DNA of 32,691 nucleotides, taken from positions 1 through 32,691 of IMG/VR virus record IMGVR_UViG_3300005805_000014. One strand, 5' to 3'. Each line of letters begins with the position of its first letter. Positions within the stretch are counted from its first letter, which is position 1. The notes under the pieces were generated by a model, which saw nothing but the letters and a program-made list of their open reading frames with translations, had not been told where the DNA came from and ran no database searches. This stretch comes from a virus (taxonomy: Duplodnaviria > Caudoviricetes). Shown in pieces: positions 13,606-30,807 of this stretch. Both the position numbers and the translations under genes were made by a program.

Positions 13606-14559
13606 ATGGCTTTTAATGTTGCTGCTCTTGCAGACTACACAGAACAAAACGAGGCATTGCTTGTAACTTCAAGTGTGCTTGGTGCTAAGACTGCATCTTT
13701 GATAAAGAGTGCAGGTAATGTAATGGTTGGTGTTAAATCATCTGAAACCATTAACATTATGGATACTGATGCAATTTTCCAAAGTGGTGCATCATGCGGT
13801 TTTACTGCATCTGGTTCAACTACTTTTTCTCAGAGAACTGTAACAGTAGGTAAAATTAAAGTGAACGAGGCTCTTTGCCCTAAAGATTTGGAGGCTAAAT
13901 ATCTCCAAAAGGCATTGCCAACAGGTTCAATGTATGATTCAATCCCATTTGAGCAAGAATTTTCTGAGAAGAAAGCTAAGAGAATTGCTGCTCAACTCGA
14001 AACTGCTTTGTGGCAGGGCGATACCGATAGCGGTAATGCTAACCTTTCTCGCTTTGATGGCTTGGTTAAGTTGATTGGAGCTGCATCTGGAGTAGTTGCT
14101 GCAAACAGTTCAACTTACATCTCTGGTGCTCCTTTGAGCTCAATTACTGCAGCTAACGTAATCTCTATTTTTGATGGAGTTTACAAGGCTATCCCTGCAC
14201 AGGTTGTAGCTGCTGATGACATGACTATCTTCTGTGGTCAAGATGTTTTCAGAACTTACACTATTGCATTGAAAGATGCAAACCAATTCCATTACTCAAT
14301 TGATGTTAAAGCTGATAGCGAGTTCATTTTGCCAGGCACTACTATCAAAGTTGTAGCTGTTGCAGGTTTGAACGGAACTAACAAGGTTTATGCAATGAGA
14401 TTGAGTAATATGTTCTTGGGAACAGACCTCTTGAATGAGGAGGAGAAATTTGAGATTTTCTACGCAAAAGAAGCAGACCAAGTACGTTTTGTTTCTGAGT
14501 TCAAAATGGGTGTGAACATTGCATTCCCTGATGAAGTAGTGAAATTTATCCTTGCATAA
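13606..14559 (+). CDS. Major capsid protein
   Basis: 317 aa with strong codon bias and LWQGD...FDGL; follows protease and scaffold and precedes a terminator. Confidence 0.85.
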   Translation: MAFNVAALADYTEQNEALLVTSSVLGAKTASLIKSAGNVMVGVKSSETINIMDTDAIFQSGASCGFTASGSTTFSQRTVTVGKIKVNEALCPKDLEAKYLQKALPTGSMYDSIPFEQEFSEKKAKRIAAQLETALWQGDTDSGNANLSRFDGLVKLIGAASGVVAANSSTYISGAPLSSITAANVISIFDGVYKAIPAQVVAADDMTIFCGQDVFRTYTIALKDANQFHYSIDVKADSEFILPGTTIKVVAVAGLNGTNKVYAMRLSNMFLGTDLLNEEEKFEIFYAKEADQVRFVSEFKMGVNIAFPDEVVKFILA

Positions 14560-24304: not shown

Positions 24305-24764
24305 TCTGTTCTTAACAGGATGCCTTTCTGAGCGAAAACTTGCAGAAACCTGTGCTGAAAAATTCCCTATTAAAGAGGAAATAAAAGAGGTTTTAGTAGT
24401 AGATACCATTCAGGCAGCTCCTGATACCATTCTGGTACATTTTAAGGACTCTATTTTGCCTGTAATTTGCCCACCAAGCAAAACCATTACCTTAACAAAA
24501 GAGGTCATTAAAACGCAGGAAAATACTGCTAAAATCGAAGCCTTGAAAATGAGGCATCAAAAAGAGATGGAAACTCTGCACATGGACTACCAAAACCATG
24601 AGGCTGCCCATATCAAAGAGATGGACAAATTAAAGAAAGAGTTAAACGATGTGGAAACCAAGTTGCAAAGAGTGAGGAAATTTAAACTTTGGTTTTACTT
24701 ACTCGTATCTGGTTTAATAGCTATTTTTGCAATTCGTAATAGTTGGTTAAAGTTCCCTCTGTAA
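24282..24764 (+). CDS. Lipoprotein with C-terminal TM helix (unimolecular-spanin topology)
   Basis: MRKLLICSLFLTG-C lipobox, coiled coil, and TM segment LWFYLLVSGLIAIFAI. Confidence 0.65.
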   Translation: MRKLLICSLFLTGCLSERKLAETCAEKFPIKEEIKEVLVVDTIQAAPDTILVHFKDSILPVICPPSKTITLTKEVIKTQENTAKIEALKMRHQKEMETLHMDYQNHEAAHIKEMDKLKKELNDVETKLQRVRKFKLWFYLLVSGLIAIFAIRNSWLKFPL

Positions 24765-24785
24765 GTACAGGGGGAATTTTTTTTT
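24752..24785 (+). terminator. Intrinsic terminator ending the late operon
   Basis: TTCCCTCTGT-AAGT-ACAGGGGGAA followed by T9. Confidence 0.85.
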
Positions 24786-24796
24786 ATCTGCCAATT

Positions 24797-24982: not shown

Positions 24983-25013
24983 TTTGATATTTAAAAAAGA
25001 GTTTATACATTTG
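24983..25013 (+). promoter_or_regulatory. Bacteroidota sigma-A type early promoter
   Basis: TTTG(24983)-N19-TACATTTG(25006-25013). Confidence 0.8.
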
Positions 25014-25031
25014 AACTCTAAACCAATTATT

Positions 25032-25637
25032 ATGCAAACAGTAAAAATCAAAGGCAAGGATTACGTTCCTGTACACGAAAGAATCAAATGGCTCAATGAA
25101 AATTACGAGTACAATATTGAAACAGACTATCAGTATTTCGCTGAGAGGCGGATGTGGGTAGTCAAAGCCAAACTCACAATTAGCGGAGCTGACAGAGATT
25201 ACATATACACAGGTCATGCTCAGGAAATCGAATCAGACAATTACAGAGAAGTAAATCACACATCAGCATTAGAGAACGCAGAAACCTCTGCAGTAGGTAG
25301 AGCCTGTGCTATGGCTAATATCGGAATTGACACAGGCATTGCATCTGCTGATGAAGTAGAGAAAGCCATTAATCGTACTAAAGAACCCATTGATGAAGTA
25401 GGCGAGGAAAATAGATTGTACTTACTAACCCTATTAGAGAATACAACCTATGAGGAAAGACAAAAGGAACAACTCGCAATCAGGATCGGAGCATTGGTGA
25501 AGAATGAGGATTTCCAAAAGGCTCTGCTGAATCTACAATCAAACCAGATAGAGGATAAAGACAGAATTGCAATGGGCATGAACTACTCTCAATCTGACAT
25601 TAAGAAAACTTTAAAACGCAAAGAGAATGTTGGATAA
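25032..25637 (+). CDS. Single-strand annealing protein (Rad52/Sak-like)
   Basis: KGKDYVPVHERI...GHAQE...SALENAETSAVGRA. Start moved to ATG 25032. Confidence 0.7.
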   Translation: MQTVKIKGKDYVPVHERIKWLNENYEYNIETDYQYFAERRMWVVKAKLTISGADRDYIYTGHAQEIESDNYREVNHTSALENAETSAVGRACAMANIGIDTGIASADEVEKAINRTKEPIDEVGEENRLYLLTLLENTTYEERQKEQLAIRIGALVKNEDFQKALLNLQSNQIEDKDRIAMGMNYSQSDIKKTLKRKENVG

Positions 25638-25992
25638 ATACAATGATCACTACCAAAGGATGATTAAATATCTTGAGCAGCCTCTCCCGAAAGAGCCAGA
25701 GGAGCTCATTGAAAGATTAAATAATCTATCCATCCTGATGACAAGAGCAGGTAACTACATGACTGAATGCCAATACAGAATTGATGAGGTTGTAGATATT
25801 GAATGCAAAGTGAATCTGGAGCTATTAGATAAATTCTCTGCCTCTACATTCAACATGATGATCAAAGCAAAGGCAAAGGATTGGAACAGGCTAAAAACAG
25901 GATTTGAAAGGTGCTGCTCTGCTGCAGTTCACCAGATAGATGCAATCAGAACATTAATTTCATTTGAAAAAGCAAAAATTCAGATATTATGA
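25627..25992 (+). CDS. Hypothetical helical protein in the recombination module
   Basis: 121 aa, overlapping operon arrangement. Confidence 0.7.
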   Translation: MLDKYNDHYQRMIKYLEQPLPKEPEELIERLNNLSILMTRAGNYMTECQYRIDEVVDIECKVNLELLDKFSASTFNMMIKAKAKDWNRLKTGFERCCSAAVHQIDAIRTLISFEKAKIQIL

Positions 25993-26189
25993 ACTCTTAC
26001 CAACTACTACCACCACAGGAAAGAATGCTCATTATGGCAAAGATTTATCATCACATTTGGTATAGCGAAGGCAGATATTTCGAGATGCTAAATATGTTAG
26101 ATGAATGGGACAAGAACCCAACCAAAGAGGCTAAATTTTTAAATCAAATAACAGATGGAACAGAACTCAACGAAACCGAACTTTGCTAA
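25989..26189 (+). CDS. Hypothetical protein
   Basis: 66 aa, ATGA-coupled. Confidence 0.65.
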   Translation: MNSYQLLPPQERMLIMAKIYHHIWYSEGRYFEMLNMLDEWDKNPTKEAKFLNQITDGTELNETELC

Positions 26190-26361
26190 AGGTATTTTTC
26201 TGACTAAGAAACAAGGAAAGAAAGGCGAATTTTTAGAACTCTCTATTAAGAATGGAGAAGGTTACGAAAAATACGTTTGTTTTTTAAGCCAGAAAAAAGA
26301 TAAATTTGGCAATGAGCAGTACACTATTTACGAAAAAACTAAAAACGATTTACCATTTTGA
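26155..26361 (+). CDS. Small putative ssDNA-binding protein
   Basis: 68 aa, beta-rich, with an SSB-like C-terminal DLPF tip. Confidence 0.6.
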   Translation: MEQNSTKPNFAKGIFLTKKQGKKGEFLELSIKNGEGYEKYVCFLSQKKDKFGNEQYTIYEKTKNDLPF

Positions 26362-26792
26362 AACAGACCGAATCAACTAAATCAATTACGAGAAATTTTA
26401 TCCAATCTATCATCAAGGATCATTACGAAATGATTGGTAAACTTGAGAAACTATTGGATCAATTCCCTGTAGTTGAGAGGATAGCAAGGCACAAACGCAG
26501 ACCTGCTGAGGAAATAATCAATGCAGTTAACGAGGTATTTAATACGGATTGCACAGAACATAGCAGGAGGCAGCGAGTGGCTGACGCTCGGCATTGTGCG
26601 GTATTTATGCTCAGGCAATATACTGATCTAACCCTAAAGGAGATCGGAGAACAGTTAGGCTCAAATGGGCATCATACAACAATTTTACACAGTATTAAGA
26701 CTTGTAAAAACCTGATTGATATTGATGAGCATTTCGCAGAGAAATACAGTCAGACTAAAATTTTATTGGATTCTAAATTGCAATTAATTTAG
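26358..26792 (+). CDS. Protein with a DnaA C-terminal (domain IV) HTH
   Basis: SRRQRVADARHCAVFMLRQYTDLTLKEIGEQLG..HHTTILHS. Confidence 0.8.
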   Translation: MKQTESTKSITRNFIQSIIKDHYEMIGKLEKLLDQFPVVERIARHKRRPAEEIINAVNEVFNTDCTEHSRRQRVADARHCAVFMLRQYTDLTLKEIGEQLGSNGHHTTILHSIKTCKNLIDIDEHFAEKYSQTKILLDSKLQLI

Positions 26793-26800
26793 TATATTTG
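26793..26800 (+). promoter_or_regulatory. -7 element of a probable promoter for the replication operon
   Basis: TATATTTG; the -33 element is not clear. Confidence 0.55.
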
Positions 26801-26801
26801 T

Positions 26802-26878
26802 TTTGAGGATGCAGCCTCAGATTAAAAACATTAATTTCCCTGATGGGTGCGGAACTGCATTTCCAATCCCTTCAGGGA
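26802..26878 (+). ncRNA. Putative cis-regulatory two-hairpin kissing-loop RNA
   Basis: Loop 1 ATGCAG (26809-14) is the reverse complement of loop 2 CTGCAT (26855-60). Confidence 0.65.
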
Positions 26879-26887
26879 TTCTTATTT

Positions 26888-27634
26888 ATGAACACAGGTC
26901 AAATAATAAAAAGTAGGTCAACTGAGCGGTTTACTACTTTGCCTAACGAGGTTTTAAAAAGTAAAAAACTATCTCTTGAGGAAAAGGGATTTTTAAGTTT
27001 TCTTTTGAGCCTTCCATGTGATTGGGTTATTTACAGGCAGAATCTCTACAATGAATTGCCAGACAAGAAAGGAACTATAGACAAGCTGTTTAGAAACCTA
27101 CAGCAGAAAGGCTATATTCTTAGTGTAAAAGTACATGATCCGAAAACAGGGAGATTTGTAGGGTGGAATCATGTTGTGTATGATATACCTGCCGAGATTG
27201 ACAAAAACCGACAGTCGGTTAACCCGATCTCGGAAATTCCCGATCTCGGTAAAAGTGCCCCTATACTAAATACTAATAATATACAAAAGACTGATATTAT
27301 ACAAAAGACTAAGAATATACAAAAGCCATCACTTTCTGAAGTTGAGGATTATTTCTTAGAAAAAGGCAGTACAGTAGAAAAAGCTAAACAGGCATTTGAA
27401 TATTATGAGGTTGCGGATTGGCATGATTCAAAAGGGAAACCTGTAAAAAATTGGAAACAAAAAATGTTGTCAGTTTGGATAAATAATTCTAATTTTAAAA
27501 CTAACTTTAACAAACCAACTAAAATGCAAATGTATGAGGACTTATTTAACAGAGTCGCAGCTAATCTCAAAAGCGAGGAAAACTCCGAAACTGATGGATT
27601 CGGATTCTCAGGATATATTGAAAATAATCACTAA
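26888..27634 (+). CDS. Phage replication initiator (N-terminal wHTH)
   Basis: FTTLPNEVLKSKKLSLEEKGFLSFLLSLPCDW...LQQKGY; internal iterons; C-terminal PSLSEV..YF...W.DSKGKPVKNWK. Confidence 0.8.
   Translation: MNTGQIIKSRSTERFTTLPNEVLKSKKLSLEEKGFLSFLLSLPCDWVIYRQNLYNELPDKKGTIDKLFRNLQQKGYILSVKVHDPKTGRFVGWNHVVYDIPAEIDKNRQSVNPISEIPDLGKSAPILNTNNIQKTDIIQKTKNIQKPSLSEVEDYFLEKGSTVEKAKQAFEYYEVADWHDSKGKPVKNWKQKMLSVWINNSNFKTNFNKPTKMQMYEDLFNRVAANLKSEENSETDGFGFSGYIENNH
27192..27327. other. Probable replication origin inside the initiator gene
   Basis: CCGA at 16-bp period (27192, 27208, 27224, 27240), then three TATACAAAAG at 18-bp period. Confidence 0.7.
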
Positions 27635-28205
27635 AGGGATGATCCTGTTAGGGGTAAAAGGTGAAAGGTTGCCTTCAGAGTTTGAGCTAAACTATATCTC
27701 AAAAATGATGAAGGTTGACTATGCTAACTTACCTATAGGAGAGTTTGATTTGGCATTCGAGTTATGTGCTAAAAACAAATTGGATGAGGTTGCGGAAACT
27801 TTCCAGAATTTCTCAGTCCTTTACCTAACGAGAATGATGGGCAGCTATGCCAGATGGGTAAGAGCTAATTATGTTCCTGAGCCTATACCAGAAACAAAGC
27901 AAATAGAAGCTCCAAAAGTTACTGATGATGAAATCCTGCAGACTTCATTTGAGATATACAAGAGAAATAAAGATTGGGAGCATATTTTCAATGGGTTAAG
28001 ATGTTTTAAAATTTTGCACAGCAGAGGATTAATAACAGACTTTGAGGGAACTCTGGAAAGAACAGAGAATGCTATCAGAGAGAAGTTCAGATATGCTGAC
28101 CATAAAGAGAAAAAGCAGATGAAAGAGATTCTGGAAGATGATGAGCAGATGGAATTAAATTGTCGCAGAATGGCAGTTGCTGAATATTTCAAAACTTTAA
28201 TGTAA
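27534..28205 (+). CDS. Hypothetical protein, possible helicase loader
   Basis: Directly follows the initiator, in the lambda-P position. Start may be ATG 27594. Confidence 0.55.
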   Translation: MRTYLTESQLISKARKTPKLMDSDSQDILKIITKGMILLGVKGERLPSEFELNYISKMMKVDYANLPIGEFDLAFELCAKNKLDEVAETFQNFSVLYLTRMMGSYARWVRANYVPEPIPETKQIEAPKVTDDEILQTSFEIYKRNKDWEHIFNGLRCFKILHSRGLITDFEGTLERTENAIREKFRYADHKEKKQMKEILEDDEQMELNCRRMAVAEYFKTLM

Positions 28206-28209
28206 CTTT

Positions 28210-28392
28210 ATGAGGTGTAAGATTTGTTTAAGAATTTATACTGTAACTGAATACAATGGCAAAACAGGTAGCAAAGAGTGCCCACATTGCAGGTTTAAGC
28301 CTGACATCCACAAAGGAACTGTCAGCCTCAGACCTTACAAAATGGGCAAAGCAGCATCTGGAAAAACAGGGGGTAAGGCTCAACAGGGTTAA
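28210..28392 (+). CDS. Possible small zinc-ribbon protein
   Basis: CKIC...CPHC; overlaps the next gene extensively. Confidence 0.35.
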   Translation: MRCKICLRIYTVTEYNGKTGSKECPHCRFKPDIHKGTVSLRPYKMGKAASGKTGGKAQQG

Positions 28393-28633
28393 TAATATCC
28401 CTGTCAGGAGGAGAAAGGGTACAATTGAGAAAGGATGGGCAGACCTTCAAGGCTATGATTCAAAAGGTATTTATGTTGCAGTTGAAGTTAAAAAAATCGG
28501 AGATACAGTAAAGCCAGAACAGGTCAGTAGGTTGCATGATGTTGCTACCTGTGGCGGTAAGGCTTACATCTGTACAGAGGATGAAGGCAAACCCATTTTA
28601 ATTGAGTTTGGTGAGTTTGGAGAGTTTGCGTAA
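28256..28633 (+). CDS. VRR-NUC / PD-(D/E)xK nuclease (resolvase-like)
   Basis: GWADL...VAVEVK...PEQ...GG.AYI. Confidence 0.8.
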   Translation: MAKQVAKSAHIAGLSLTSTKELSASDLTKWAKQHLEKQGVRLNRVNNIPVRRRKGTIEKGWADLQGYDSKGIYVAVEVKKIGDTVKPEQVSRLHDVATCGGKAYICTEDEGKPILIEFGEFGEFA

Positions 28634-29510: not shown

Positions 29511-29818
29511 AACAAGAACACAAAGATTATTTAGAAGAACACATTGGCAACTACCATACAGTTCAGAATGGGTATGTCAGAAATTTAGATATTCAACTAC
29601 TCAATATGTATGAGCATATCTACAAACTCTATCTTGATCCTCAGTTTGTTTTGACTAAATGGTGCAGCAGTTGCGTAATGGAAATGCTCCAAAGACTCTA
29701 CAGGTATTATCTCAGTTTGCCTCAGGAGGTAATTCAGGATTTGCCAATTGTACAAGAAACTGTACAAGAACCTGTACAGGAAAATGTACCTAAAAAAAGA
29801 GGCAGACCTAAGAAATGA
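29507..29818 (+). CDS. Hypothetical protein with CxxC and a KKRGRPKK tail
   Basis: WCSSCV; 12-bp tandem repeat at 29749-29789; AT-hook-like end. Confidence 0.7.
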   Translation: MKQEHKDYLEEHIGNYHTVQNGYVRNLDIQLLNMYEHIYKLYLDPQFVLTKWCSSCVMEMLQRLYRYYLSLPQEVIQDLPIVQETVQEPVQENVPKKRGRPKK

Positions 29819-30807
29819 GAATATTAGCCATAACAAGTAAATTCTCAGGGGTAGGTTATCATCGGATAATGCTGCCTTTGGTGCATATGCAGAAAGACTA
29901 CTGCCTGATCACAGATACTTTGAGTGAGGAAATAGTTGCAAAAGGTTGGGACATATTCCTGATGAATAGGTTTCTGGCTGATATAAATATTCAGGACATC
30001 ATAGATTGGCGAAAAAAATATGGATTCAAATTAGTAGTTGATAATGATGATTTCTGGCAGTTAGATGCATCTCATGTACTTTATCAGAGATATGAGGATA
30101 ATGGCATAACAGATAGGATTTTGCAATACATAAAACTCGCAGACCTAAATACCTGCACTCACGAAAGACTCGCAGAGGCAATATATCAATATAATCCTAA
30201 TGTAGATATTTTGCCTAATGCCCTGCCATATGGAGAGGAGCAGTTTCTGGACAATAAAATAGAATCAGATAAACTCAGGTTATTCTGGGCAGGTAGCGGA
30301 ACACATGAAAAGGATTTAAAGATTCTAAAAGAGCCTCTCAAAAGATTGATTGGCAAGAATGTTAAAATGATATTGGCAGGGTATAATGAGAGCGAGGGGG
30401 AGATTTGGAATTACATGGCTTATTATTTCTCTGCAGGTAGAAAATTAGATACTCACATTTACAGGTACACAGATGTAACGAGGTACATGGCAGCCTATGC
30501 AGATTCTGATGTGAGCCTGATTCCTCTGGTTGAATCTAAGTTCAACGGAATGAAATCAAATCTCAAGGTTCTGGAAACTGCTGCTAAAAAGAATCCTGCC
30601 ATAGTTTCAAATGTCCATCCTTATAAAGATTTGCCTGTACTTTATGTAAATAAGCAGTCAGATTGGAACAAACATATCAACTCATTACTCAGAGATCAGC
30701 AGATGAGGATAGGGTTAGGTCAGGAGCTTTTTGACTATTGCTCAAAACATTACAACTTTAAAGAGATAAATTCTAAAAGAAACAGCATTTATAGTAAACT
30801 ACTCTAA
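29815..30807 (+). CDS. GT-B fold glycosyltransferase
   Basis: SGVGYHRIMLP, VVDNDD, ILPNALP, WAGSGTHEKDL and PL..FNGMKSNLKVLE. Confidence 0.85.
   Translation: MRILAITSKFSGVGYHRIMLPLVHMQKDYCLITDTLSEEIVAKGWDIFLMNRFLADINIQDIIDWRKKYGFKLVVDNDDFWQLDASHVLYQRYEDNGITDRILQYIKLADLNTCTHERLAEAIYQYNPNVDILPNALPYGEEQFLDNKIESDKLRLFWAGSGTHEKDLKILKEPLKRLIGKNVKMILAGYNESEGEIWNYMAYYFSAGRKLDTHIYRYTDVTRYMAAYADSDVSLIPLVESKFNGMKSNLKVLETAAKKNPAIVSNVHPYKDLPVLYVNKQSDWNKHINSLLRDQQMRIGLGQELFDYCSKHYNFKEINSKRNSIYSKLL
30765..30794 (+). promoter_or_regulatory. Putative late promoter for the lysis region
   Basis: GATAA-N16-CATTTATAG before ATG 30808. Confidence 0.65.

Follow-up and report, generated by a model that had tools for sequence, protein, structure and literature searches.

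A kissing-loop leader of terminator form upstream of phage replication genes: a widespread, apparently undescribed RNA element with a predicted attenuator function

The replication initiator gene of a phage, the complete 32.7-kb record of which was analyzed (32,691 nucleotides, referred to as the window), is preceded by a leader with two hairpins, P1 and P2, whose loops L1 and L2 are complementary to each other. Sequence comparison of relatives confirms that this loop complementarity is real and beyond chance, and the leader seems to be a genuine, widespread, and apparently undescribed form of kissing-loop terminator switch with a predicted function. P2 and the U-rich tail that follows it have the form of an intrinsic terminator, a point absent from the earlier note on this DNA, and promoter, stable hairpin with U tract, and downstream gene are arranged as in an intrinsic-terminator attenuator. 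We propose, with a probability of roughly 55%, that the conserved two-hairpin leader attenuates transcription of the replication operon without a ligand, and that kissing of the loops would lead to read-through.

The leader and its replication module

The window carries direct terminal repeats, and genes for terminase, portal, tail, and endolysin functions are recognized, as is a glycosyltransferase gene (29815-30807; PHROG 7162, E 5e-63); no integrase family was found among the 47 window proteins scanned against PHROGs. A strong intrinsic terminator (24749-24788), the loop of which has an A/T-rich 7-nt match further downstream, follows the late genes; past it come a gap rich in A/T and, at 25006, a TAnnTTTG box. 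The replication module (about 24984-28633) consists, in this order, of a gene with a DnaA C-terminal-type HTH, the leader, the initiator, and a VRR-NUC gene (Table 1). As the stop codon of the first gene abuts the box of the leader, upstream transcripts would cross the leader too. The match of the initiator to HTH_36 is weak and below the cut-off. Its iteron-like repeats, two sets of direct repeats with 16-nt and 18-nt spacing, likely constitute the origin; lambda O-type initiators are the model for an origin role of repeats inside the initiator gene. Among cultured relatives of the C-terminal part of the initiator, 93 of 122 matches are Flavobacterium phage records, and from these relatives and the promoter type we infer a host belonging to the Bacteroidota. 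In other relatives, the N-terminal half (26888-27375 in the window) is replaced by unrelated domains, the exchange beginning precisely at the start codon and leaving leader and C-terminal half in place (record 8 of run X3; L024, L063, and L071), and the N-terminal domain behind the retained leader varies among HTH_36, DUF1376, and DUF6291 types.

Table 1. Features of the leader and of the adjacent genes in the window
Feature	Position	Strand	Basis
Upstream co-directional gene, DnaA C-terminal HTH	26358..26792	+	Pfam Bac_DnaA_C, E 1.8e-13
Bacteroidota sigma-A -7 box TAnnTTTG (TATATTTG)	26793..26800	+	Sequence; columns nearly invariant in near-relative alignment
P1 hairpin, 4-bp core GAGG/CCUC	26805..26818	+	Fold; covariation in 4/6 pairs, with register noise
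Loop L1 AUGCAG, 5' kiss partner	26809..26814	+	Sequence, covariation
Unstructured A/U-rich linker, 18 nt	26819..26836	+	Sequence
P2, long interrupted hairpin of terminator form	26837..26878	+	Fold, -20.9 kcal/mol
Loop L2 CUGCAU, 3' kiss partner at the tip of P2	26855..26860	+	Sequence, covariation
U-rich tail, 7/9 U, predicted termination site and rep initiation region	26879..26887	+	Sequence
Replication initiator, 248 aa, N-terminal HTH	26888..27634	+	PHROGs replication initiation/DnaD-like families, E 3e-12 to 4e-7
Iteron-like repeats within the initiator gene	27223..27325	+	11-mers at 27223 and 27239; 10-mers at 27280, 27298, and 27316

The positions given in the earlier note for the box TATATTTG, for the hairpins (26802-26821 and 26837-26878), and for both loops are correct, as are the end of the structure 9 nt before ATG 26888 and the in-frame ATG at 26843. 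In a flavobacterium, TAnnTTTG occupies positions -12 to -5 according to the accessible text of PMC9723704, and transcription in the window is predicted to start at G26805 (+1), so that a transcript from the box promoter would contain only the inner 4 bp (GAGG/CCUC) of hairpin 1. The 7-bp stem described before would be reached on a longer upstream transcript (26802-26821); L001 and L293, the nearest relatives, do not keep its outer three pairs. P2 is composed of outer pairs (26837-43/26872-78; pairing probability 0.999 in the window), a middle GGG/CCC, and an inner GGAA/UUCC. The minimum free energy (MFE) fold of 26793-26900 contains both hairpins (-31.3 kcal/mol, z -2.95, with one of 200 shuffles as good). 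Taken alone, these features of the window are weak, since the box TAnnTTTG occurs 38 times with 40 occurrences expected and a 6-nt loop match has a chance of about 1 in 4096. A terminator scan of the window called only a small 3' hairpin (26865-26880) and not P2. This alternative hairpin was rejected as a conserved switch partner, as it occurs in 12 of 58 leaders and has a pairing probability of about 1e-4 in the window.

Conservation of the leader and its downstream genes

Relatives of the initiator were collected from viral, metagenome, and genome collections (best 80 at most per search) and by one pattern scan, and 350 starts among the matches listed gave 190 distinct leaders, distant non-Bacteroidota rows included. 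The detector required at least 6 Watson-Crick loop pairs and closure of each loop by a stem; it replaced an earlier one working on MFE folds of split leaders, which missed weak P1 stems. Among the relatives listed, a kissing pair is detected in 107 of the 190 leaders, comprising 36 loop pairs, and 30 of these 107 belong to one near-identical group. Positives account for 102 of 127 leaders with a box 60-135 nt upstream versus 5 of 63 without one, and controls gave 25 positives in 1260 chimeras and 2 in 1080 shuffles. Six of the 83 negatives pass a relaxed test, and in seven the leader stands before another gene with rep coupled behind it (nine cases less the artefacts L282, a repeat array, and L293, a mis-called start). 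For 68 of the 190 leaders, no element was detected within the sequence examined, some being visible longer variants that the detector missed; in L025, L116, L150, L058, and L353, the leader is lengthened by an additional hairpin, placed either inside P2 (in one case with a GNRA-type loop) or within the linker. On the Anaerococcus scaffold L282, a CRISPR-like pair of identical palindromes of 32 nt, with a spacer (~1730-1850), precedes a distant initiator homologue by ~1.2 kb.

Covariation in 24 near relatives, chosen as the subfamily of the window and aligned by sequence only, settles the loop complementarity. The loop-loop kiss is 98.2% paired, and two-sided changes occur in seven of seven pairs; none of the refuting conditions of the earlier note that can be checked by computation came true. 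The covariation score of the kiss is 0.857 compared with at most 0.258 when slid, and none of 500 shuffles reaches it. P2 is 96-98% paired in these relatives, its outer and middle pairs 98.3% with two-sided change in 6 of 10. Where only one side of a pair changes, a G-U or U-G wobble on the + strand results, which is a signature of RNA. Together with the detection in 107 of 190 leaders, the loop covariation supports a conserved cis RNA switch before the initiator as proposed earlier, whereas the possible translation start at ATG 26843 is disfavored: in 55 leaders, its counterpart is missing from 27, lies out of frame or is closed in 19, and is both in frame and open in 9.

With the model R1, which covers only the near subfamily, no second copy of the leader was found in the window. 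The same model gave no match in 151 genomes from the phylum of a Bacteroidetes MAG under strict filters and without a positive control, which does not imply absence. A blastn search with the window leader against cultured phages returned chance matches only. Ten sequencing runs contained 9-34% of the search words, and the four examined were contigs.

Two scans of viral contigs ignored the gene and required box, loop, and counter-loop, leaving some positions free (at least 120 loci in the first; 120 loci, about one third of an estimated 360, in the second). Among the matches listed, the free position is complementary in 75 of 82 distinct matches versus 25% by chance, and both free positions are complementary in 38 of 103 versus 6% by chance. 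A U tract is present in 33 of 38 complementary but in 8 of 65 other matches, and the fold around L2 amounts to -18.7 and -9.0 kcal/mol, respectively. The first genes after these leaders (45 representatives of 102 proteins) code for initiators of several unrelated families, BT4734/PriCT primases, and helicases, and further for NUMOD4-HNH and GIY-YIG homing endonucleases, for Mom and C5 methylases, and for small unknown proteins. Judged by these downstream genes, the element is not specific to initiators; from the switch of initiator levels postulated in the earlier note, the cis element is retained and the restriction to initiators is given up.

Eleven records were scanned whole, and four of them carry 2-5 leaders each, 14 in total, every loop being different. 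One reverse-strand duplicate in G157 and three doubtful matches (G155, G154, and G159) were excluded, and these counts are minima as the whole-genome detector missed the leaders of elemoA and G156. Homing endonuclease genes in G152, G157, and G158 (L617-L618, L627-L634) appear to form cassettes, each equipped with a promoter and a kissing leader of its own; a genome has several of them, with loops all different. Among cultured Flavobacterium phages, lillamy9-1, morran9-1, mumin6-1, and elemoA_7-9A possess the leader, which heads a replication or helicase operon and has a different matched loop pair in each of the four; in the first three, the different pairs are carried on a related scaffold. 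The lillamy9-1 leader occupies 14098-14216 of MN812212.1. LMO6/LMO9 phage isolates are described as virulent in the accessible text of PMC7077304.

Proposed mechanism and alternatives

According to the reading to which we commit ourselves, transcription would start near 26805 and P1 would fold first, so that L1 could capture L2 as it exits the polymerase about 40 nt later. The rod formed by P1, kiss, and P2 would have about the length that the linker is able to bridge; the kissed state would hinder the outer P2 pairs during the pause at the U tail, and the polymerase would enter rep. If P2 closed first, an RNA of about 80 nt would be released. In this attenuator the kiss is predicted, by analogy, to be the ON direction, and a kiss of 6-8 bp may need no input signal; the fraction of read-through would be set by a kinetic race depending on polymerase speed, pausing, and Mg2+, and this race would tune the switch. 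In read-through RNA, the start codon, 9 nt from P2, would moreover be crowded by P2 in its closed state. In the least certain step, released leader RNA might compete for L1 and lower read-through.

The geometry of the leaders is consistent with a kiss in cis. P1 begins 3-8 nt past the box in 49 of 58 leaders, linkers of relatives are mostly 12-19 nt long and 75-95% A/U, and L1 and L2 are spaced by 37-47 nt in 50 of 58 leaders although any spacing of at least 30 nt was permitted. A spacing of 38-42 nt is found in 85 of 113 complementary scan matches versus 30 of 72 non-complementary ones. A strut model predicts that P1 and P2 trade length against each other, and their lengths correlate with a rho of -0.79 (22 clusters), or of -0.88 when three misfolded rows are removed (20 clusters; over-extended folds of L062, L180, and L324 excluded). 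The sum of P1 and P2 is 25.0 +/- 2.1 bp versus a spread of 5.4 on permutation (0 of 10000), and the ratio of helix rod to linker length, calculated with customary rise values, has a median of 0.92 (range 0.56-1.56). The trade-off, which is driven by four long-P1 clusters, fits a cis kiss strained by full closure of P2, and a fixed leader length explains the numbers equally.

Whether the leader would act on transcription or on translation can be judged from its 3' end. A tail with at least 7 U in 8 nt is present in 46 of 58 relatives, and position -3 carries T in 48 of 72 starts with a leader versus 18 of 56 others. That U tracts displace the usual -3 A, and that the start codon lies 29, 51, and 52 nt past P2 in three cultured phages, favors termination; such distant start codons, and the different gene between leader and rep at seven loci, favor control at the level of the operon. 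The 3' end of P2 is 9-15 nt from the ATG in 50 of 58 leaders, so that occlusion of the start site may add to termination or even be the main effect. A translational switch, in which P2 would mask the region where translation of the first gene begins, the 3' arm of P2 would be kept open for the ribosome by the kiss, and termination would play a minor part, would agree with this short distance and with the U tail of the window, which is interrupted and weaker than most tails of relatives. It would also agree with the starts of Bacteroidota, which generally do without Shine-Dalgarno pairing and must be open. We nevertheless regard this switch as unlikely, as the distant start codons of the three cultured phages, those 44-68 nt past L2 in several scan matches, the conserved U tracts, and the absence of a leader peptide speak against it. 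With P2 so close to the ATG in most leaders, the translational control of rep suggested in the earlier note is a live rival still; the evidence points more to transcription attenuation.

Beyond the attenuator in cis, the released RNA might act in trans. We consider it possible, if rather doubtful, that Bacteroidota phages widely employ an antisense-free copy-number control, in which one promoter would give both target and inhibitor: the cis kiss would prop the terminator open, terminated 80-nt leaders, rising with genome copies, would take nascent L1 in trans, operons for initiator, primase, nuclease, and methylase would be shut, and the fast 7-nt loops would define incompatibility groups. Less likely than a translational switch is that such a self-made inhibitor, the loops of which could not kiss in cis with P2 closed and would pair with nascent L1 instead, would be the main control; copy number would feed back on itself and like phages would be excluded according to their loops, by the logic of P4 CI RNA and IsrK, for which the accessible text of PMC4825925 offers the precedent. 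Kiss columns require 4.3-5.3 parsimony steps, linker columns 4.9, and P2 outer pairs 2.4, counted on a short alignment with register noise. The kiss columns, in which every change takes two substitutions, thus vary at the pace of the linker and at about twice that of the outer pairs of P2. Such fast change would hint that distinct loops are selected for, and hence that the released RNA acts in trans; it is suggestive only. No loop is repeated among the 14 leaders of the four multi-leader genomes, but zero repeats among ~20 within-genome pairs is not significant. The controlled genes code for dosage-sensitive DNA enzymes, as an inhibitor of this kind would suit, and the conserved spacing speaks for a kiss in cis.

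More improbable again is a kiss that would stabilize the terminated state, or dock a structure-specific protein or a small ligand, such that the direction would be reversed or a factor needed. Rom, which acts on the kissing loops of ColE1, is a precedent for a protein of this type, and a kiss of 6-8 bp with a bias for GU...AC ends (82% G and 78% U at the first two positions) might be a recognized shape. Conservation near the kiss reaches at best 82% among 41 loop types and does not approach the 97% of a riboswitch pocket, however, and the leader accompanies unrelated first genes. That the element is an inverted operator at the DNA level (the loops are an inverted repeat in DNA), a plain leaky terminator whose loops match by chance, or a lone CRISPR repeat (CRISPR-DR66, 27.7 bits, E 0.004, at 26860-26893) is very improbable in view of 36 freely varying, mutually matched loop pairs and strand-specific wobbles. 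The likeness to DR66 covers the 3' half of P2 and the start codon with a small alternative hairpin in the nearest subfamily only; it was rejected with 27.7 bits against a cut-off of 45 and a small 3' hairpin of -4 kcal/mol or below in only 12 of 58 leaders, and is judged to be due to chance.

Comparison with known systems

Neither the window nor the leaders of 40 related loci matched an Rfam model at gathering score, and only tRNAs and one DUF805b motif were found in these loci, elsewhere than in the leaders; the earlier view of a possibly undescribed motif agrees with this result. The DUF805b cis-regulatory motif is located in an early-region intergenic gap of lillamy9-1 (L365:904-938; 52.1 bits, above the gathering score). 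No description of the leader element was found in the literature covered, from which subscription journals are mostly missing, and the accessible text of PMC5737381 contains no matching motif. The anonymous candidates DNAVirus_187, _4859, _4940, _8377, and _1203 of Fremin et al. 2023 (PMC10690425), compared by description only and from the accessible part of that paper, are 49-106 nt long, mostly from freshwater phages with Bacteroidetes hosts where given, and located no further than 25 nt from DUF1376/DUF4373/HTH_36 initiators, PriCT/VirE_N primases, or NUMOD4/HNH genes. They share size, habitat, host, and gene context with the leader, and no loop-loop pairing or mechanism is given for them in that part; judging from these descriptions, this catalogue may list pieces of the leader family anonymously and without the kiss. 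If our reading is true, a common regulatory RNA family of Bacteroidota phages is missing from Rfam, and the leader would control the commitment step of phage DNA replication as well as expression of mobile nucleases. It could also yield orthogonal, protein-free transcription switches for Bacteroidota.

In IncI/IncB plasmids, coupling to a leader peptide and an antisense RNA act on rep translation, and the rep attenuators of pT181 and pIP501 are driven by antisense RNA. Pairing of loops within the leader of an initiator gene is shared with the IncI/IncB rep leader (ColIb-P9 repZ pseudoknot, Inc RNA/RNAI; accessible text of PMC10724649), and in both the loop sequence could set specificity. An initiator lies downstream in both systems, though for part of the present family only, non-initiator genes being found downstream as well, and here the kiss partner is the loop of a terminator. 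The IncI/IncB analogy drawn in the earlier note fails, since neither a conserved leader peptide nor an antisense promoter was found: 26 of 55 leaders have no 5' ATG, the ORFs of the other 29 end before rep (17), overlap it (7), run into it (3), or fuse with it (2), and the sigma-A box, the only promoter type sought, occurs in antisense orientation in 8 of 58 leaders versus 12.8% expected. With pT181 and pIP501 the phage leader shares a terminator in the rep leader as output, but among 58 leaders no countertranscript promoter with a sigma-A box and no classical antiterminator strand were found. Like P4 CI RNA and Gifsy-1 IsrK (accessible text of PMC4825925), it would be a short phage-leader RNA with its own terminator ahead of a downstream operon (in P4, for replication) that such RNAs control; neither in the window nor in 40 related loci did the P4 CI/c4-type Rfam models reach the gathering score.

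The closest precedent is the guanidine-IV riboswitch (GGAM-1/mepA motif; Gd4v), as described in the accessible texts of PMC7736828, PMC11611296, and PMC9788692. Both RNAs consist of a 5' hairpin, a linker, and a terminator hairpin that carries a U tail, with a pseudoknot between the two loops, both are about 80-95 nt long, and both are found upstream of varied genes; two hairpins with a loop-loop pseudoknot, the 3' one of Rho-independent terminator form, are seen in the leader by form and covariation. In guanidine-IV, a short kiss is ringed by 97%-conserved nucleotides and guanidine is needed, and its genes are those of exporters and acetyltransferases, whereas the leader has 6-8 Watson-Crick kiss pairs of nearly free sequence and precedes phage genes for DNA replication, nucleases, and modification. 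The window lacks the 4-nt P1 loop and the second-loop motif of guanidine-IV, as read in two Table S1 constructs, and none of the 45 first-gene representatives is a sugE, MATE, GNAT, or transaminase gene. Lacking these conserved nucleotides and this gene context, the leader is not a member of the guanidine-IV family. In guanidine-IV the kiss hinders the terminator, giving read-through, and growth of P2 strains the linker (accessible texts of PMC7736828 and PMC11611296). The leader probably works in the same way without a ligand, and its family offers natural variation for the question posed by guanidine-IV, namely how a kiss with a terminator loop gives read-through.
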